From assembly GCA_003170325.1 (NCBI GenBank), contig PMZP01000031.1:1-30632 (forward strand): DNA of 30,632 nt, read 5' to 3'. Of this stretch, positions 3,901 to 16,565 are shown piece after piece (the stretch's first letter is position 1; each line of letters starts with the position of its first letter). The position numbers and the translations under genes are program-made. Under the pieces are notes generated by a model that saw only the letters and a program-made list of their open reading frames with translations, made no database searches and was not told the DNA's origin. The DNA is from Candidatus Tayloriibacteriota bacterium. Its GTDB lineage: Bacteria > Patescibacteriota > Minisyncoccia > Phycocordibacterales > PALSA-1337.

Positions 3901-4371
3901 TTACCACGCGAAGTGAGCAAAGGCCTTGTTGGCTTCGGCCATCTTGTGGACATTTTCGCGCTTCTTGACGGCTTCGCCTTCGTTCTTGGAAGCGGCGATG
4001 ATCTCGTCAGCTAGCTTTTCATGGATGGGCTTGCCTTTCTTGGAACGGGCGGCATCGATGATCCACTTCATGGACAATGCTTGTTTGCGCTCCGGTCGAA
4101 CTTCGCGCGGGACTTGGTAGTTGGCGCCACCGACGCGTCGGGAGCGGACTTCCATAGCCGGTGTGGCATTTTTCAGGGCTGTTTCGAAGAGTTCCAATGG
4201 GTTCTCGACCTTGGCTTTCTCCTTGATTACAGCCATACAATCAGCCACGATGCCGCGAGCGATGTTCTTCTTGCCAGATTCCATGATGTAGTTCGTGAAT
4301 TTGGCCAGCTTCAAAGACTGATAGTTGATATCTGGCTTGAGGTCTCGCTTGATTTTGATTTTGCGTCGCAT
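3901..4371 (-). CDS. rpsG: 30S ribosomal protein S7
   Basis: 156 aa; EVRSRRVGGANYQVP and HKMAEANKAFAHF motifs. Confidence 0.99.
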   Translation of the reverse strand: MRRKIKIKRDLKPDINYQSLKLAKFTNYIMESGKKNIARGIVADCMAVIKEKAKVENPLELFETALKNATPAMEVRSRRVGGANYQVPREVRPERKQALSMKWIIDAARSKKGKPIHEKLADEIIAASKNEGEAVKKRENVHKMAEANKAFAHFAW

Positions 4372-4992: not shown

Positions 4993-5802
4993 TCATCTGG
5001 AAAATTCAGGAAGTTCCGAGGAATTATAGAAGCCAGCGGCCAACCCACCGAAACTGTATATCGTAGAGCCGAGCTTGATCTCAGCGCCGCCGACTTGTGG
5101 ATCATAATGCGGTATTGAATGTGAGAAACCGATGTTGAAGAGAGTAAAGAGGATTTCCGGACGGCTGGAAATGTCGAATCCGGCATTCTGCCATTGTCGC
5201 ATCAATTCCTTCTCATATAGCGCGGTGTATAGATATGAATAGTATCGATCATTGGAGTCGGTCAGCCGGTTGAAACGAGCGATATTGGAATCGGTCGAGG
5301 TCGAATCAAGCAGATGTTCATATTGTGATCCGAGATAGAAGGTAGAAGTGCTCGACTTCAAGTTGTCTTCGATCTGCTTAGCCGTGTCTTCCTTTATGCC
5401 CATGACTCCCCAAGAAAACTGATTCTGCACGCCTAGAATTTTCAAAGGTTCAAAAACGCTCTTGAAGAGATCACGGTTGTCCGTGAATAAACGCAACTGT
5501 TCGACGATGAGAGGTGCCACGATGAGACGTGGTGAGATTTGAGCGACCGTTGCCGCCCTATCGATGTCGCCTCGGTCTTTCAGGATCGCGATCTTCAATG
5601 ACTGCCACTCCGGACTACTGATCCAAGCAGAATTAACGCTGACACTGCTGACGACGATCTGATCCTTGAAGTAATCGTGCTGACTATCGACGATTCCTGT
5701 CACATTTGTCCAGTGCAACTTGATGGCAATAAAACCAACGAGCATGATGAGGCCGAAAATAGCCAAAATGTAAACGATCATGTGGAATAGCTTTTTCATC
5801 AT
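4993..5802 (-). CDS. Membrane-anchored protein with putative lysozyme/lytic-transglycosylase-like fold
   Basis: ORF track starts at 5853; MMKK at 5802 is preferred because a hydrophobic segment (IVYILAIFGLIMLVGFIAI) follows. IDRAATVAQISPRLIVAPLIVEQ, SWGVMGI and TLFNIG resemble the three SLT/lysozyme motifs. Confidence 0.55.
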   Translation of the reverse strand: MMKKLFHMIVYILAIFGLIMLVGFIAIKLHWTNVTGIVDSQHDYFKDQIVVSSVSVNSAWISSPEWQSLKIAILKDRGDIDRAATVAQISPRLIVAPLIVEQLRLFTDNRDLFKSVFEPLKILGVQNQFSWGVMGIKEDTAKQIEDNLKSSTSTFYLGSQYEHLLDSTSTDSNIARFNRLTDSNDRYYSYLYTALYEKELMRQWQNAGFDISSRPEILFTLFNIGFSHSIPHYDPQVGGAEIKLGSTIYSFGGLAAGFYNSSELPEFSR

Positions 5803-5901: not shown

Positions 5902-8900
5902 ATGAATAAAAAACTCCTTCCGCTTATTATCGCCGCCATAATAAGCGGCACTTTCGCGTTTTTCGTCGTCGGGTATGCCGTGACTATGCCGGTACAGTCG
6001 CAGACTCAAACGGCGGCGGTGGGGAGTTTAACAGCAGGTAAGTCGTATCAGCCGACCGCGGAATACAGTTCTGCTTCCGCACGATACATTACCAGTGCCA
6101 CAACCAGGGCAGTTTCGGGCGATAATTCAGTAACAGTGAACCCAATGGGCCAGCCATCATTAAACACGGTCATTTCGAGCGCACCACTGGCCAAAGCCCA
6201 AACATCTTTAGGTTCTGCGATTCAATCGTCTCTCGTAAAAGACCAATACATTGTTGAACTTACGCAATCTCCTCTTTCCGTTAAATATGCTCAACTGAAG
6301 AATCAGAACGGTGCCAAGGTGTCATCTGCGGATTTAAATTCCGCTTTATCCGCTCAAAAAAAGCTGATATCAAACCAACAAAGCTCATTCCTACAGAATC
6401 TGCCCTCAGCTGTCAAAGCAAAAAATGCGGCCATAATCAGCAATATTTCCGGTTCGAAGAGCGCTTCACAAAAATCTTTCAGCGTCGTACTCAATGCTGT
6501 CGTTCTTAACATGAATGCCGACGAAGTGAAGAGCGTCAGCAACCTTTCTCAAGTGAAGAAGATCGAACAGGTTCGGACAGTCCATGTCGATCTCATGGAT
6601 TCCGTGCCGCTCATAAAAGCTCCAGAAGTCTGGGCGGATAACTTTCCAGGAGCACCAACAAGTACTCCAATTACCGGGAAAGGGGTAAAGATTGCCATCA
6701 TTGACACTGGCGTAGATTATTTGCATCCTGATTTAGGCGGTTGTTTCGGTCCCAAAGTCGTGAACGGTCAAGTCACCTCTTGTAAAGTGGCTGGCGGTTT
6801 TGATTTCGTCAACAGCGATCCCGATCCAATGGATGATATGGGTCACGGCACGCATGTGGCGGATATCGCCGCAGGTAACGGTATGCCTAAAGGCGTGGCT
6901 CCGGATGCCACAATATACGCGTATAAAGTTTGCAATAGCGGCGGTTCATGCGATAACAGCAATATCATCGCTGGATTGGAGGCCGCCACAGATCCGAATT
7001 ATGATGGAAATCTTTCCGATCACCTGGACATAGCCAGTCTTAGCTTGGGTGGTCCGGGAAATCCGGATGATGAAATGTCTACAGCTGTTGATAATGCCGT
7101 AAATGCTGGAGTAGTTGTCACGGTTGCCGCAGGTAACAACGGACCGGCTTCAAATACCATAGGTTCACCAGGTACGGCTAGAAACGCCATCACAGTTGGA
7201 GCAACGGATAAACAAGATAACATCGCATCATTCAGTTCGCGTGGCCCTGTCACTTGGACAGCATCGGACGGAAACACATACAATTTGGTCAAACCTGATG
7301 TAGTTGCTCCTGGCGTGAATATTTGTGCCGCGCGATGGAGCACTGCGTTTTCTGACGGCGATACTAATTGCTATCACGACAGCACCCACGTTGCTATTTC
7401 GGGGACTTCTATGGCCACTCCACACGTTGCCGGAGAAGCTGCTTTGCTTTTGCAGCTTCACCACGATTGGACGCCGGCGGAAATCAAAGCGGCGATAAGA
7501 GACAGCTCTAAACATCTTTCAGGTAATTGTCCCGTCGGATATTCATGCGGCATTTCGGTTGATGACCAAGGGCAAGGCAGGATCGACGCGCTGCAGGAAG
7601 TTCGATCACCGCGTCCACCGATCGCTTTGCTTGTGCCGATAACTGTCGGTAATGGCACTATTAGTATAAGAGGAACTGCTACTGCCCAAAACTTTAAGCA
7701 GTACAAAATTTCCTATGGACAAGGACAAGACCCTAGTTCTTTCACAGATTTATACACGTCAAATCAGCCTGTTTCAAACGGAGTTTTGTATTCCGGTTTG
7801 GATACTACCTCTCTCAACGAAGGAGCATACGCTATTAGATTGATGGTCACCGATTCTGCGGGAAACACTAGCAGTGATGCCGGACTTCTGGAAGTTAATA
7901 ATATGGAGATCACGTCAGTGGGAAATAATCTCAATTATATCAATGGTGGAGTACAACAAATCCTAGGCAGTATCCATTTGCCATCAGCCACAAGTTATCG
8001 AGTATTATTGGCGCCAATTCCCGGCAATACGACGACTATATGTTCGGGTAATTCGATTCCTACAGGAAACACTATTTGTTCCGCTGATTTCAGTAATGTG
8101 GCGGATGGAAAATATTACTTATACTTGGAGGTCTATCAAAATGGCGTCTGGAATATCGATGAGCCGTTTACTATGGCAGTCGTCAAAGAATTATTAAATA
8201 ATTGGCCACAGAAATTAATTGGTTTTCCTAGAGGTAATCTAGTGGTCTTACATCAACCGAACTCCCCGACTAAATTGGTCGTTCCTTATTACACAAGTTG
8301 CTCTAATGCTGGTTCATGTAGTTATCCGCCAACACTATTATTCTACGGTTTGGATGGGACATACTCTAGGTTGCAGAATCTCGCGGACGGCTCTACTATA
8401 CCGGATGATTCAATGCCATCAGTACTTTACAGTCCGACTCGACAACAGAATGTTCTTGGCCTAGCAGAGTCATTCGGTGACAATTCCAAAAAAATCATCG
8501 ATACGAACGGTTCAGTCATTAAATCGTGGGACCAGAATTCCTCAATGACACAAAATTCAAGTATAACCGCATTTAATCGAGATGGTGCTGGTATAGGTTT
8601 ATATACAGGAAGTGTTCAATACAACGGTAGTCAAACAGTAAACCAGATAAATGGGTACGATGTTAATGGTAACAAACTCAAAAATTTTCCTGTAATTATA
8701 CCACCAGGTTCACAATCTGGATCGCTAACCTTTGTTCATCCAGTGTTTTTATCTGATGGTATATCGCAAAATTTAGCTGTCATAACGGGGGAATTTACTA
8801 ATGACGCTGGATATATGAGGGATCTAAAGTTGTACGCAAATGTATTTTCAGCAACTAATCAATTGATCAAGAAACAGCTAGTGTTTGATGGTACTGGAAA

Positions 8901-12027: not shown

Positions 12028-12960
12028 TCACTTGATCGTCAGGCTCGTACCATCCGACACCACATGTATGGTGCCGATTTCTTTTATATTCAAGCGGTGG
12101 TCGATTGAAATAGAAGCCAAAGGATCGGGAGGGATTTTGGCTGATTTCTTCTTTAAGGTCGCAGCTGGTTTGGAAGCTGTTCCGGAATTATTCGCCGACG
12201 CCAACTGTTTCGAATAGACCAAGAATTTCGGCTTCAATTCATTCATCAACCGCACCGACATATTCGCTGGCAGAGCGCTGTGCGAAACGATCACGGCATC
12301 AGTCGCAGTCACGTGCGAGGATGTGGCTGCTAGAAATTCTTGTACCTTATGCGAAGCGTTGCCTAAGAAAGTCACTGATGTGGCCGCGAATTTTAAAGTG
12401 AACAACACTTCAGGAGCGCTGGCGCGCGAATACACAAAATCAGCCGGTTCGACCGGAAAATGTATCTTGGCGCTGACAGCTTTGCCGAACAAGATAGTGT
12501 TCCCCGCCGCGATCTCGTGAACCGGGACTTTGGTATCAGCGATCCTTTGTAATAACGCCTGGTAAATGGGGTCGGTGTCGCTCGCAAGCCCCAGATTATG
12601 AAGCGTCACGGCCGGAAGATAAATCTCGTCAACGCGATATCTATTGAGCAAGTCAATAAGTCCGCTCACGTTTTTGCCGTCGGTATTCGTAGCGATCAGA
12701 GTGTCGATGCGCCGCGAATAGAACGGGATGATCTTCGTGAGCTCGCGTATGACGTCGGAATTCGAGCCGCCATCGATGAGCACACGGTAATCATCCGGCG
12801 TGCGGATGAACATCGAACGCCCGCTAGACAGATTGAAAACGTATATATCGAGCATTTGGGGACGATGATCCTCGTTCCAAATGTATCCACCTACTCCGAA
12901 GACCACCGCGCTGGCTGTGGCGGCGATGATGATCGGCTTCGAAGATAGCTTGAGGGCCAT
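12028..12960 (-). CDS. ComEC C-terminal-like metallo-beta-lactamase-fold protein with degenerate metal motifs
   Basis: 310 aa; N-terminal anchor; IRTPDDYRVLIDGG and IPFYSRRIDTLIAT match stand-alone ComEC MBL domains; HxHxDH position reads TNTDGKNVSG. Confidence 0.8.
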   Translation of the reverse strand: MALKLSSKPIIIAATASAVVFGVGGYIWNEDHRPQMLDIYVFNLSSGRSMFIRTPDDYRVLIDGGSNSDVIRELTKIIPFYSRRIDTLIATNTDGKNVSGLIDLLNRYRVDEIYLPAVTLHNLGLASDTDPIYQALLQRIADTKVPVHEIAAGNTILFGKAVSAKIHFPVEPADFVYSRASAPEVLFTLKFAATSVTFLGNASHKVQEFLAATSSHVTATDAVIVSHSALPANMSVRLMNELKPKFLVYSKQLASANNSGTASKPAATLKKKSAKIPPDPLASISIDHRLNIKEIGTIHVVSDGTSLTIK

Positions 12961-12966
12961 GCCATG

Positions 12967-12972
12967 ATCGTA
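12967..12972 (-). promoter_or_regulatory. Candidate -10 box of the MBL-fold gene
   Basis: Minus strand TACGAT, 6 nt before the ATG at 12960 and 10 nt from the 85-bp repeat. Confidence 0.6.
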
Positions 12973-12982
12973 CTCTCTCGAG

Positions 12983-13067
12983 ATGAAGACCTGATGAAGA
13001 AAGGCTCAAGAAAGGATAAAGAAAGTCTCAAAATTCGATAAAAAAAGGTTAAAGAAACGATAAAGAT
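12983..13067. repeat. 85-bp phased-repeat element, copy 1
   Basis: 79/85 identical to 16416-16500; 11-bp units GAAGACCTGAT GAAGAAAGGCT CAAGAAAGGAT AAAGAAAGTCT CAAAATTCGAT AAAAAAAGGTT AAAGAAACGAT. Confidence 0.95.
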
Positions 13068-13169
13068 TGGCCATTGAACCGATTGACGGCTATAATTCGT
13101 AAGGTAATTACTTATTAACCTGGATAATTTGCTATGATTAGCCACCGCCTAATCAACACCCATATAAAT

Positions 13170-13778
13170 ATGAATAAATTCACTGCCAAAACCTTCAAAA
13201 TCCCCAAACTCAAGGGTATCTCCGAGAAAACTATCGAGGAACATCTCAAGCTCTACCAGGGATATGTTAAGAATGCCAATTCCATCTTGGAGAAAATCCC
13301 AGAATACAACGGGTACGTTGCAACCGATGCCTTCGCGCCGTATGTAGTCGGAGAGCTCGCTCGCCGATTTAGCTTCGAATACAACGGCATCCGCAATCAC
13401 GAAGTCTATTTCTCCGCATTTGAAGGCGGCCCGAATGATCTCGCCGGTGGAAGCACCCTCAAAAAGAAGATCGCCGACACTTGGGGGTCGTTCGACGGCT
13501 GGTTCAATGGATTCAAGCACCTGGCCACCACCACCCGCGGCATCGGCTGGGCTACGCTCTGGTGCGATCCTCGAACCGGAGACCTGCAAACCACCTGGAT
13601 CGACGAACAGCACCTTGGCTTGCTTAACGGTTGCGTGATGATCCTCGGCCTCGACATGTGGGAACACTCCTACGTCGCCGACTATCATCCTTCCGGCAAG
13701 AAGAACTACATCGAAGATTTCTTTGCGAACCTGAATTGGGAGGTGGTTGAGGGGAATTATAAGGGGGCGGTGAAATAG
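13170..13778 (+). CDS. sod: Fe/Mn superoxide dismutase
   Basis: All four metal ligands present: EEHLKLYQGYV, NHEVYF, LDMWEHSY. ORF track starts at 13134; MNKF at 13170 preferred because an extended -10 TGcTATGAT sits at 13130-13138. Confidence 0.93.
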   Translation: MNKFTAKTFKIPKLKGISEKTIEEHLKLYQGYVKNANSILEKIPEYNGYVATDAFAPYVVGELARRFSFEYNGIRNHEVYFSAFEGGPNDLAGGSTLKKKIADTWGSFDGWFNGFKHLATTTRGIGWATLWCDPRTGDLQTTWIDEQHLGLLNGCVMILGLDMWEHSYVADYHPSGKKNYIEDFFANLNWEVVEGNYKGAVK

Positions 13779-13931
13779 GGTTATTGGATTTGAATCCTGA
13801 TAGGGACCCAAAAAGAATATGAGTCGAGAAGGCTGGCGTTTTGGTTGCTATTCTTTCGAGACATAAAAAATGTTGACTGATATTCTCTATTATTATAGTG
13901 TGTTTGCAGGTCAAGAAAGGAAACAGAACAC

Positions 13932-14249
13932 ATGAACATTATGAATGAAGAAAGAGCCCATACGCTCGCAGAGTTCGTTGATGCGAGTATGAAGCACGCC
14001 ATCGTCCCGACGAATTTACCTGATGGTGTGTCACCGGACGAGGCCGCAGCGAAACTTCGAAGGCCAGACGTGATCCTGAAAGGTCTTGGTGTAAATGGTC
14101 ACTATTTCTCAGGATGGTTTGATCCCTGTGGTCGGAGAGTCCGAACAGCCGAAGGTGAAGTTCTCTTCACGTTGGTGCCCAAGTTAAACGGAAACGGGAT
14201 CGTGTACAGGCTTACACTTTCCGATGTGGCCCTCAGAATGCTTCATTGA
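13932..14249 (+). CDS. Hypothetical protein (orphan)
   Basis: 105 aa; preceded by TTGACT-17-TAGTGT (13873-13901) and AAGGA; followed by a terminator. No family recognised. Confidence 0.65.
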   Translation: MNIMNEERAHTLAEFVDASMKHAIVPTNLPDGVSPDEAAAKLRRPDVILKGLGVNGHYFSGWFDPCGRRVRTAEGEVLFTLVPKLNGNGIVYRLTLSDVALRMLH

Positions 14250-14276
14250 CAGTCTGCTTTCGGGGGATAGCCATTC

Positions 14277-14302
14277 AAGCCCGGCATACGCTGGGCTTTT
14301 TT
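14277..14302 (+). terminator. Intrinsic terminator
   Basis: AAGCCCGGC-ATAC-GCTGGGCTT stem (one G-U) running into a T tract. Confidence 0.75.
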
Positions 14303-14528
14303 ATCTTTGTTAAAAGACCCGCCACTTTTCCGAGACTCTCCATAAAGTCGTCAAACGGTAGAGGAATATCGGATGAGAAGACACCCTTGACTTTCTCGTC
14401 ATTTCGCCTAAACTTAAATCAGTAAATACCTTGAGAGTTTCGAGATTCTCTAAGAGCGGAAAATTCGGCTCGGCCGCCAGCGTTCGCTTCACGGCGAATA
14501 TGCAGTATGGAGGGATCGTTTCGTGGTT

Positions 14529-14963
14529 TCACGAAGCTGCCGTCCTCCAGAGAATCTCAAAGTTCTTGAGGTATTTTTCTTTGGCGATAAACGAAGTGAT
14601 GATAATGATAGCTTGAGAACTAGTTCTTTCGATTACAACAACGTAGAACTCGCCTTCTTTTTCGACTCCTGACAATTTTGCAATAAGGATACGAACATTA
14701 TTTCCTCTATAGACAATGTCAGGATAAGTCAGTACATGCGGAATACTTGAAAACAAGATTGTACCCTCCGATCCTTTCTCCGCGAGATGTTTCAGTGTTC
14801 TCCGTGTAAAAAATACACCAGCACCTGCTTCATGGATAGCATGCCAAATGGTCTCGTTCATCGAAAATCCAGTTTCAACCAACTCATCCGGACGATCAAT
14901 AAGAACTCCCTTGGGGATCTTCTGAAACTCCTCAAATAAGAATAGTAATACTGAAGACATCAT
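14529..14963 (-). CDS. Hypothetical protein, possible PBECR (Barnase/EndoU/colicin/RelE-like) nuclease fold
   Basis: ATG at 14963 overlaps the comEC TGA (ATGA); RRTLKHLAEK, HVLTYPDIVY and YVVVIE...IIITSF resemble PBECR-type domains. ORF track starts at 15047. Confidence 0.55.
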   Translation of the reverse strand: MMSSVLLFLFEEFQKIPKGVLIDRPDELVETGFSMNETIWHAIHEAGAGVFFTRRTLKHLAEKGSEGTILFSSIPHVLTYPDIVYRGNNVRILIAKLSGVEKEGEFYVVVIERTSSQAIIIITSFIAKEKYLKNFEILWRTAAS

Positions 14964-16393
14964 AGCTTTTTCGATTTGTTTGAAGACTTCATCTTTTTCA
15001 CCACCACAAACCCCCCTAGAAACACCGCGTAAAATCCGATCACCCACCAGATGGAAAACGGCGGCACGTGGGCGGCGGCGAAAGGCAGGCGGGCGAAGTT
15101 CTGGACCATGAAGAGCTCATACGAGAGCAGCAAGTGCGAGATCCAGCCGAAGAATTGGGCCACCGGCATGAAGACGAAGCCGCCAGCGCCGGTCAGGAAG
15201 ACGAAAAGCATGGTCGGCGGAATGCTCGGAAGAACCAAAATATTGACTACGACGCCAATGATAGAGATCTGGCCCATTATGTATAGGATGAACGGCGTGA
15301 CAAAGATCTGTGTGGAGATAGTGGCGGCGATGATGCCGCGTAGACCAAATGTGTCGGGAATAAAACCCAGGCGCTCTTCGACCGGACCAGCTAGCAAGAT
15401 CAACCCCAAAGTCGCCAGGAATGATAGCTGAAAAGAGACGTCGTGGAGAAGGATCATCGGATTCTCTATGAGCATGATGAGCGCCGCCAAAGCCAGCGCT
15501 CGCGTCACATTGTAATCGCGCCGCAGAAGATCGGCCGAAAGAGCGATCCCGGCCATGACGCATGAGCGCACCACCGTGGCTCCCCCGCCGACCAAGACAC
15601 CGAATAGCGCGATGCCGATTCCGCCGATCCCGATCCCCCAGATGCGCGGCAAGAATGAGAGCAGACGACGCATAGCGTAGGCAACGATGGTTATGTTGTA
15701 TCCGGAAAGCACGACGATGTGGATGAGTCCGACTGTACGAAAATCAACCAGCAGATCGTTTCCCAGAGCCGCTTTTTCACCGACCACCAAGCCAGAAGCC
15801 AGAGCCGCTTGCGGTTCGCCCAAGGTCCGCTCAAGGTTCATGACAAATCCGGCTTTGAGGGAGTATAGGAGTAAGGTTACTCTATTTATGGCAGATGAGA
15901 TAAGATTGCTCGCGGTGATTTTTTCGGAAGATTCTTCGCCGGTCCTTTCGTCGATCTTCGCGACCGTCGCGCTTTTCATCTCATAGAAAACGTCATCTTT
16001 CGCCAAATAGCCTTTGTAATCGAACTCCCTACCGCTGTCCCCGCTCCCAAAATTCATCGGCTCTAGCAATTTGCCTTGGAATGAGACGTGATCGCCGAAG
16101 GCAAATTCCGGGTAAAGTTTGGTTTTGACTCGCAGAAGAAAATCGGCCGAGCATTCCTTCTGGCTGACCGGAGAAGCAGTACCAGAACCAGTGATTGAAG
16201 CTTCTCCGACAGAAATGACCAGTATCTGGCCAGATTCCGCCCTTTGCGGCTCATCGTCAATCGTGCCTGTTCCACTGACGTTCTCTTTTAAACATAATCC
16301 GATATCCGGCGCGACGGTTTGAAACGATTGCCAGACGCGGAAAATGGCGGCCGCTAGAAAAATGCTCCAAAAGATGACAACTCCTTTTTTCAC
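14960..16393 (-). CDS. comEC: ComEC/Rec2 competence protein, membrane (channel) portion with N-terminal OB/DUF4131-like region, no fused MBL domain
   Basis: 477 aa, GTG start; GLIHIVVLSGYNI, VRSCVMA, DVSFQLSFLAT and multiple TM segments. Confidence 0.93.
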   Translation of the reverse strand: MKKGVVIFWSIFLAAAIFRVWQSFQTVAPDIGLCLKENVSGTGTIDDEPQRAESGQILVISVGEASITGSGTASPVSQKECSADFLLRVKTKLYPEFAFGDHVSFQGKLLEPMNFGSGDSGREFDYKGYLAKDDVFYEMKSATVAKIDERTGEESSEKITASNLISSAINRVTLLLYSLKAGFVMNLERTLGEPQAALASGLVVGEKAALGNDLLVDFRTVGLIHIVVLSGYNITIVAYAMRRLLSFLPRIWGIGIGGIGIALFGVLVGGGATVVRSCVMAGIALSADLLRRDYNVTRALALAALIMLIENPMILLHDVSFQLSFLATLGLILLAGPVEERLGFIPDTFGLRGIIAATISTQIFVTPFILYIMGQISIIGVVVNILVLPSIPPTMLFVFLTGAGGFVFMPVAQFFGWISHLLLSYELFMVQNFARLPFAAAHVPPFSIWWVIGFYAVFLGGFVVVKKMKSSNKSKKL

Positions 16394-16399
16394 TCACCG

Positions 16400-16405
16400 A
16401 TTATA
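16400..16405 (-). promoter_or_regulatory. -10 box of comEC
   Basis: Minus strand perfect TATAAT, 6 nt before the GTG at 16393 and 10 nt from the 85-bp repeat. Confidence 0.75.
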
Positions 16406-16415
16406 GGCGCGGTAA

Positions 16416-16500
16416 ATGAAGACCTGATGAAGAAAGGTTCAAGAAAGGATAAAAAAAGGTTCAAAATCCGATAAAAAAAGGTTAAAGAAAGGATAAAGAT
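16416..16500. repeat. 85-bp phased-repeat element, copy 2
   Basis: 11-bp units GAAGACCTGAT GAAGAAAGGTT CAAGAAAGGAT AAAAAAAGGTT CAAAATCCGAT AAAAAAAGGTT AAAGAAAGGAT. Confidence 0.95.
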
Positions 16501-16508
16501 GTCCCGGG

Positions 16509-16565
16509 AGGTGAAACCTAACGCGGTTGAGCCACCAAACCAAATGCCTAGGTGAAACCTCGGCA
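16509..16565. repeat. Two copies of quasi-palindrome AGGTGAAACCT; second is inside a larger hairpin
   Basis: AGGTGAAACCT at 16509-16519 and 16550-16560; TGCC-T-AGGT-GAA-ACCT-C-GGCA at 16545-16565 abuts the rnhA stop. Confidence 0.75.

Follow-up and report, generated by a model that had tools for sequence, protein, structure and literature searches.

How a split gene comes to have the same elaborate repeat in front of both of its halves is the question raised by a 30,632-nucleotide contig (PMZP01000031.1 of assembly GCA_003170325.1, here C27), analysed in full and referred to below as the window, from a genome of Candidatus Taylorbacteria (G000; 864 kb, 89% complete). In this contig the DNA-uptake protein ComEC is encoded by two separate genes, comEC-N and comEC-C, both preceded at the same promoter position by an array of 11-bp direct repeats. 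The answer favoured here, with a probability of roughly 0.6, is that such arrays are docking sites of the single OmpR/PhoB-type response regulator (RR) encoded in the genome and serve as operators of a DNA-uptake regulon, a reading drawn from sequence comparison.

Array A (12983..13070, minus strand) comprises seven to eight 11-bp direct repeats, which read ..CCTTTYTTnAn.. on the gene strand, and is the proposed operator of the comEC-C promoter; array B (16416..16500, minus strand), with seven such repeats, is the proposed operator of the comEC-N promoter. Alignment bears out what a first-pass annotation of this DNA had reported, namely that positions 12983-13067 and 16416-16500 are identical at 79/85 positions (93%) and that this conservation is confined to the array, similarity beyond either end being at chance level. 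The 11-bp unit that it described is likewise recovered by Tandem Repeats Finder, which assigns to 12993-13066 and 16426-16499 a period of 11 (6.7 copies) and, with a better score, a super-period of 22 (3.3-3.4 copies). On the gene strand, the promoter-proximal end of both arrays is CTTCAT-CAGG-TCTTCAT. Ten nucleotides past array A lies the -10 hexamer of comEC-C, TACGAT (12967..12972, minus strand; ATCGTA on the plus strand), followed after 6 nt by an ATG start codon (CAT, 12958-12960, minus strand); ten nucleotides past array B lies that of comEC-N, TATAAT (16400..16405, minus strand; ATTATA on the plus strand), followed after 6 nt by a GTG start codon (CAC, 16391-16393, minus strand). The 10-nt spacers are unrelated in the two copies, and the -35 position of both promoters falls within the array, where the sequence is not TTGACA-like. 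This shared geometry, also part of the earlier description, was read again from the sequence and holds.

The naming of both genes as comEC halves is correct, because the 477-aa product of comEC-N (14960..16393, minus strand) carries the Pfam DUF4131 and Competence (channel) domains of ComEC, and the family profile of the 310-aa product of comEC-C (12028..12960, minus strand) matches the beta-lactamase-like domain of a solved ComEC (30bt_A, residues 531-746; E 3.5e-13). The latter product, which gives only weak Pfam matches to metallo-beta-lactamase families, corresponds to a stand-alone, diverged metallo-beta-lactamase-like domain of ComEC. The locus is almost complete in at least eight independent peat-metagenome DNA runs and is therefore no assembly artefact of a single sample. 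In relatives, inserts of differing length occupy the gap between comEC-N and comEC-C, the split itself being ancestral to the genus. A recent insertion of about 2 kb that would have split comEC and copied its promoter, bringing in the genes for a superoxide dismutase, a 105-aa product and a PBECR2-like protein, was considered and rejected, since the split and a separate comEC-C array occur throughout the genus with variable inserts. A 15-codon plus-strand peptide within the array (ATG AAG AAA GG...) was also dropped, given that the arrays keep a fixed register with the minus-strand promoters and that their units vary freely among species.

The arrays are not restricted to comEC. A position weight matrix scan and a generic scan for phased units recovered the same set of 16 arrays in G000, each made of four to nine head-to-tail 11-bp direct repeats paired as 22 bp, whose T-rich core ends in TTTATC, TTGAAC or TTCAT. 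Oriented to the gene, all 16 start with the unit ATCTTCAT and continue with alternating nnnTTTYTTGAR and ACYTTTTTTAT units, the final two being of the TTCAT type in most arrays. The array is followed by 7 nt and an extended -10 element (TGnTAnnnT), which places the TAnnnT hexamer 10 nt from the array end, and no TTGACA-like -35 hexamer is present at these promoters. An ATG or GTG codon occurs exactly 22 nt past the array, 6 nt past the -10, in at least eight cases, and leaderless mRNAs are therefore predicted. The register of array, -10 and start codon is always fixed, and the composite pattern CTTCAT N5 YTTCAT N8-12 TANNNT occurs 11 times in G000 against 0.05 occurrences expected from shuffles. 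Array-less genes (the RR promoter at L007:5086-5110, a site at L007:~4045-4075 and many other loci) also display TGnTAnnnT followed after 6-7 nt by ATG, so that extended -10 promoters with leaderless transcripts may be common throughout the lineage; these cases suggest that they are its norm.

Gene calls from Pfam and NCBIfam assign 7 of the 16 array-driven units in G000 to DNA uptake and processing. The genes concerned are comEC-N, comEC-C, dprA (followed by topA) and comM (YifB), a ComGA/GB-like operon that encodes a 390-aa T2SSE ATPase, a T2SSF protein and a pilin-like membrane protein, a further pilin, and rpsF-ssb-rpsR. Two long PilB-like ATPases and a PilT-like ATPase are encoded without an array. 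The remaining units are dnaG-rpoD, reached through a tRNA-like leader RNA, and a paralogous RNA on contig C2; genes for a MazF-like protein, a DUF3800 protein and a 954-aa secreted LCAT-like hydrolase; two small proteins of no known family and one open reading frame (ORF) cut by a contig end; and a non-coding transcript directly 3' of the RR gene. By a rough estimate, the share of uptake and processing genes exceeds chance by orders of magnitude. What marks a competence regulon, one shared upstream element before several unlinked DNA-uptake genes that is kept between species, is found here, and the arrays are best interpreted as putative promoter modules of a regulon whose centre is the uptake and processing of DNA. 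The competence-regulon operator postulated in the first-pass annotation thus stands as far as the presence of arrays at uptake genes is concerned, but the element is not specific to comEC (16 arrays) and about half of the units are not classical competence genes. Among the places where further arrays had been anticipated, dprA, the pilin, the T2SSE/T2SSF operon and rpsF-ssb-rpsR carry them, as does comM; recA does not, and comF was not identified.

Conservation of the arrays was assessed in upstream regions from up to 30 other species of the genus per gene, whose proteins are 57-81% identical to those of G000 and whose gene starts were inferred from alignments. A strict pattern search gave few matches in these relatives because the units differ among species, and was replaced by orthologue-anchored footprinting, in which a run of at least three phased units was scored as an array. 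Of the regions upstream of comM, 23/29 contained phased arrays, as did 21/28 of those upstream of comEC-N and 47/56 of those 3' of the RR gene; the corresponding figures were 0/53 for the region 5' of the RR gene (control) and 2/173 for random windows. The 11-bp periodicity anticipated at orthologous promoters is therefore real, and comEC-C has its own array in most relatives. Upstream of comM in other families of the order, 1/14 regions contained an array; the sister-family comM loci that were read have none, except in G040, with two 11-bp repeats upstream, and possibly in G030, where the contig is cut off. In these other families (L111-L126) comM lies directly past a gene for a DksA/TraR-type zinc-finger protein with almost no spacer, and the genus has the array promoter placed between these two genes.

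Genome-wide, the regulon was defined in two genomes, G000 and the complete relative G017, in which a species-specific pattern yielded about 18 arrays. These precede comEC-N, comEC-C, comM, dprA, a short T2SSE gene, a pilin gene and rpsF, as well as genes for an LCAT-like secreted protein and an LPD3-like small protein, the RR-adjacent RNA, two Gp49/HTH toxin-antitoxin pairs, an NYN protein and products of no recognised family. Because the same core genes stand behind the arrays of both genomes, the core regulon replicates.

As to the protein that reads the arrays, G000 encodes exactly one Trans_reg_C (OmpR/PhoB winged-helix) protein. Its gene (C41, L007:4396-5085, minus strand) has an array starting within about 10 nt of the stop codon. 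LytTR, ComK and TfoX (TfoX_N) proteins were searched for in G000 and none was found. Of the genomes of the genus, 58/61 encode an RR orthologue (39/39 among those of high quality), and at nearly every locus that was read the gene is followed by the array, the extended -10 and a conserved hairpin. Of 16 sister families 11 have no RR homologue, and the array at comM is missing from them as well; G030 and G040, which belong to sister families, have kept the RR together with the array and the hairpin/RNA module. The receiver domain of the RR, as read from its sequence, retains the acidic pocket, the Asp in IVLDYSLP and the Lys in TKPF. At the RR gene itself, the promoter combines a normal -35 of the TTGCA type with a TATACT -10 and lacks an array; arrays therefore take the -35 place only at regulated promoters.

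The architecture of the arrays is that expected of an OmpR/PhoB-type operator, with a period of about 11 bp paired into 22 bp, a position about 10 bp 5' of the -10, and replacement of the -35. A pho box sits at the -35 place, about 10 bp upstream of the -10, and the arrays likewise occupy the -35 place and end about 10 bp before the -10. Their periodicity is also that of the pho boxes of Escherichia coli PhoB, in which 7-bp direct-repeat cores alternate with 4-bp spacers, so that the period is 11 bp and a dimer covers 22 bp (PMC4447250).

A more specific link comes from the recognition helix, which aligns without gaps to that of E. coli PhoB (TVEAHIRNLRKK in the RR vs TVDVHIRRLRKA in PhoB). 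In PhoB, Arg201 forms a hydrogen bond with the G of TGTCA, and PmrA has Asn at this place (PMC3973317). The residue aligned with it is Asn in 50 of the 51 RRs with a readable helix and Arg only in that of genome G046, where the arrays at comM, comEC-N and the RR-adjacent locus contain the G-bearing units TTGTCAT, TGTTATC and CGTAATC, the first of them nearly the pho-box unit CTGTCAT. In the RR-adjacent array, G046 has five GTNA and one TTNA, compared with zero to one GTNA and one to nine TTNA in the 50 other genomes. Arrays built from G-bearing units were seen in G046 alone. This covariation, observed in a single lineage, appears to link the operator sequence to the DNA-reading residue of the RR and argues against pure curvature as the function of the arrays. 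A further covariation, between the residue before position 201 (Thr, Ser, Ala, Val or Met for Arg) and units of the TTAAT type, showed no clean correlation and is not claimed.

On these grounds a mechanism can be proposed in which phosphorylated RR dimers would occupy the 22-bp pairs in head-to-tail order. The dimer nearest the -10 would substitute for the -35 and recruit region 4 of sigma-70, as PhoB does at pho boxes. Two to three upstream dimers, possibly together with bending of the T-tracts, would add cooperativity, and transcription would start at or next to the start codon. The expected outcome is a switch-like co-activation of comEC-N, comEC-C, comM, dprA, the ComGA/GB-like operon, the pilin gene, ssb, the accessory genes and the RR-adjacent RNA. 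What the sequences show is the anatomy of the arrays, the content and conservation of the regulon, its co-occurrence with the RR and one specificity covariation; binding by the RR, the kinase and the signal are inferred, and activation seems distinctly likelier than repression.

Among the closest known systems is that of PhoB itself: the Arg of the G046 regulator stands at the Arg201 position of PhoB, and the G046 unit resembles the pho box. The genes behind the arrays are, however, those of DNA uptake and recombination and not of phosphate assimilation, and the arrays differ from PhoB sites in having four to nine units, a usual unit that is T-rich (TTTATC, TTCAT), a regulator with Asn at position 201 and predicted leaderless transcripts. 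A search for PstS (PBP_like_2) and PhoU in the 89%-complete G000 found neither, no phosphate gene lies behind its arrays, and the RR scores 159 bits against the TIGR02154 PhoB equivalog, whose cut-off is 296; a Pho regulon was rejected for these reasons. OmpR at the F1-F2-F3 sites of ompF, TorR at the tor boxes and PhoB at pstS occupy contiguous head-to-tail sites of about 60-90 bp cooperatively. The arrays appear to resemble F1-F2-F3 and other multi-box promoters in placing several head-to-tail sites upstream of the core promoter, but here about 16 promoters bear the same long array, which is kept homogeneous in each genome, and both motif and regulon differ.

The pneumococcal regulator CiaR is not known to drive genes of the DNA-uptake machinery directly. 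This OmpR-family RR of Streptococcus pneumoniae is reported to bind TTTAAG-N5-TTTAAG in place of the -35 and to drive small RNAs (csRNAs) that modulate competence (PMC4507080, PMC4295557). The systems are alike in having a direct-repeat site in the -35 place, and here too a conserved, array-driven small RNA adjoins the RR gene; the RNAs are nevertheless unrelated in sequence and orthology is unsupported. With the ComX/SigX cin-box, the ComK K-boxes, Sxy/TfoX with CRP-S sites and the ComE repeats, the arrays have in common that comEC, dprA, comM, com-pilus genes and ssb stand under a shared element. The -10 here is, however, a generic extended -10 with TAnnnT and not the TACGAATA of the cin-box, and the operator is an array of 11-bp direct repeats, unlike the AT-box pairs of ComK or the CRP palindrome. 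The ComX, ComK, TfoX/CRP-S and ComE systems were rejected accordingly, with no ComK, TfoX_N or LytTR found and no cin-box -10. The system is probably a regulon of OmpR/PhoB type whose operator arrays are unusually long and homogenised within the genome; it would govern DNA uptake in a lineage of the candidate phyla radiation by class II-type activation, like that of PhoB, OmpR or CiaR.

Several observations weigh against this assignment. The Arg/G covariation concerns one lineage and one evolutionary event. The cognate kinase is not adjacent to the RR gene, and no kinase was identified among the eight to nine HATPase_c proteins encoded elsewhere in G000. The genome also encodes three small sigma factors (Sigma70_r2 proteins), and another DNA-binding protein was possibly missed because the assembly is 89% complete. 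About half of the array-driven units in G000 are not recognised competence genes, the genome array scan found no array upstream of recA, and the dprA array is present in a subset of species only. The co-occurrence counts overstate the support since related genomes are not independent. Repression by the arrays, through occlusion of an autonomous promoter, is conceivable because an extended -10 can work without a -35. Finally, three metatranscriptomes of the same study contain no contig on the RR and small-RNA locus; no RNA runs were listed for the pilin locus.

The small sigma factors and the incompleteness of the genome lend themselves to a second explanation, in which the arrays are operators of the same regulon read by some other factor, either a small sigma with an upstream-recognising partner or a DNA-binding protein that escaped recognition, the link to the RR being one of neighbourhood. 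The evidence for the regulon, being independent of the identity of the binder, would serve this explanation equally. A special sigma is not indicated, however, since the -10s are ordinary extended -10s of the type also present at array-less promoters (those of the RR gene and of a small membrane-protein gene), and both the head-to-tail 11-bp repeats ending 10 nt before the -10, a signature of the OmpR/PhoB family, and the G046 covariation point to the RR; a reader other than the RR is thus considered unlikely.

More doubtful still is that the arrays are protein-independent enhancers, whose phased T-tracts would form curved, UP-element-like DNA and boost the -35-less extended -10 promoters of constitutive uptake genes. 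The T-tract-rich units in 11-bp phase would suit such a role, as would a need for constant DNA uptake, which Patescibacteria may have, and the failure to find PstS, PhoU or another obvious signal pathway. Against curvature stand the conservation of non-T positions (units ending in ATC, GAAC or CAT, alternation in a 22-bp pattern, and defined first and last units), the replacement of T-tracts in G046 by GT-containing units with phase and position kept, and the limitation of the arrays to a specific gene set together with their co-occurrence with the RR. The first-pass annotation had left the choice between a platform for a cooperative activator and A-tract bending; the multi-site platform is the part that finds support in the sequences, and bending alone is less likely because a concrete candidate binder, the single OmpR/PhoB-family RR, exists.

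Arrays of different genes within a genome are far more alike than orthologous arrays between genomes, with median local alignment scores of 31 and 13, respectively (loci L051-L219), and those of comM, comEC-N and comEC-C in G001 are almost identical. The 93% identity of arrays A and B is an instance of this concerted evolution of dispersed operators in a genome, which probably proceeds by gene conversion among them, perhaps combined with tracking of regulator specificity. That the arrays are instead a mobile or recombining promoter-bearing repeat (a 'mobile promoter' similar to a miniature inverted-repeat transposable element), associated with competence only secondarily, would agree with this within-genome likeness, with the variable membership of dprA and toxin-antitoxin genes and with the second hairpin repeat often found beside arrays, but is very improbable given that orthologous positions (comM, comEC-N, comEC-C, RR-adjacent RNA) carry arrays throughout the genus in fixed register with -10 and start codon, that the arrays showed neither flanking terminal inverted repeats nor target duplications, and that concerted evolution fits gene conversion among functional operators.

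Some of the arrays appear to drive transcripts without an evident coding function. The RR-adjacent one, about 220 nt long in G000 (C41, L007:~4050-4290, minus strand, directly past the RR gene), has a 5' hairpin, GGTTAT-GnGTCGAC-ATAACC with a GUCGA loop, and a terminator-like hairpin at its end. The hairpin past the RR gene is present in about 50 genomes; five to seven of its stem pairs persist in 49-50 of 50 sequences, with substitutions in both arms of the stem, for instance TA to CG. The transcript matches nothing in Rfam and may be a new small RNA belonging to the regulon, the hairpin being alternatively a palindromic operator that may act at the DNA level. A 38-codon ORF that starts within the hairpin was rejected as a small protein, because its frame is not kept among species and the stem pairs co-vary. 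Two further array-driven RNAs, paralogous to each other and about 260-290 nt long, each with a terminator, were observed at C31:54-340 (L005), where the RNA forms the leader of dnaG-rpoD, and at C2:~5400-5664 (L001, minus strand). Both contain a tRNA-like element, recognised by ARAGORN as tRNA-Gly(acc) on C2 and scoring 23.7 bits, below threshold, with the Rfam tRNA model on C31; their 'anticodon' loops differ.

Rfam searches of 13 other array loci gave nothing beyond tRNAs and two DUF3800 RNAs, and the window gave no match at gathering score. The two RNAs, DUF3800-IX and DUF3800-V (C67, L010:8311-8379 and 8501-8596, minus strand), lie just 3' of and antisense to the array-driven DUF3800 gene. 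The LCAT-like alpha/beta hydrolase (C84:6779-3915; L013:1116-3980, minus strand) is a conserved member of the regulon, also in G017 (L305), and a ATTATCAGC motif recurs near the predicted transcription start in the leaders of the hydrolase, the pilin and two G017 units (L296, L305). One may speculate that this secreted protein helps to release DNA from neighbouring or host cells.

In the window, a second dispersed repeat, a GGAGGTTTCACCTCC-like hairpin (16504..16535, minus strand), stands between the rnhA stop codon and array B. It belongs to a repeat family (window 16504-16565) with the hairpin GGGAGGTTTCACCTCCC and no T-run, often located just 5' of arrays and past the preceding gene, with further copies on contigs C12, C14, C67, C77, C46, C54 and C79 of G000; it may be a terminator, an insulator or an element similar to repetitive extragenic palindromes. 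The stretch between the comEC halves (13068-14959) holds genes for an Fe/Mn superoxide dismutase (13134-13778, plus strand) and a 105-aa product (13932-14249, plus strand), a PBECR2-like nuclease ORF with a weak match (14529-15047, minus strand) and a 28-nt inverted repeat (14424-14451 / 14549-14576).

Patescibacteria are not known to synthesise their own nucleotides and are believed to subsist on DNA that they scavenge, and no route other than natural competence is known to have served for their genetic manipulation. Full-text searches of the literature found nothing on competence regulation, promoters or leaderless transcription in this group. There appears to be an even chance that in Candidatus Taylorbacteria, a family-level lineage, the whole DNA-uptake apparatus is under one PhoB-like two-component regulator, acting through leaderless promoters and long arrays that are homogenised within each genome and co-evolve with its recognition helix; this would embrace the split ComEC, ComM, DprA, the ComG-like pilus, the pilin and SSB, together with the lipase-like protein, toxin modules, dnaG-rpoD and a small RNA. 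If this is true, the candidate phyla radiation would gain its first described competence regulator, together with operator and regulon, and these reduced symbionts would scavenge DNA under the control of a signal and not constitutively. The proposal offers a testable circuit, consisting of a regulator gene, an operator geometry, a regulon of about 16 promoters, an RR-linked small RNA and a predicted specificity residue (Asn/Arg at the PhoB-201 position), as well as a clear example of dispersed operators that evolve in concert within genomes. The accessory members, namely the lipase-like protein and the toxins, hint, speculatively, at a coupling between DNA uptake and the lysis of neighbours or hosts, in a manner similar to pneumococcal fratricide.

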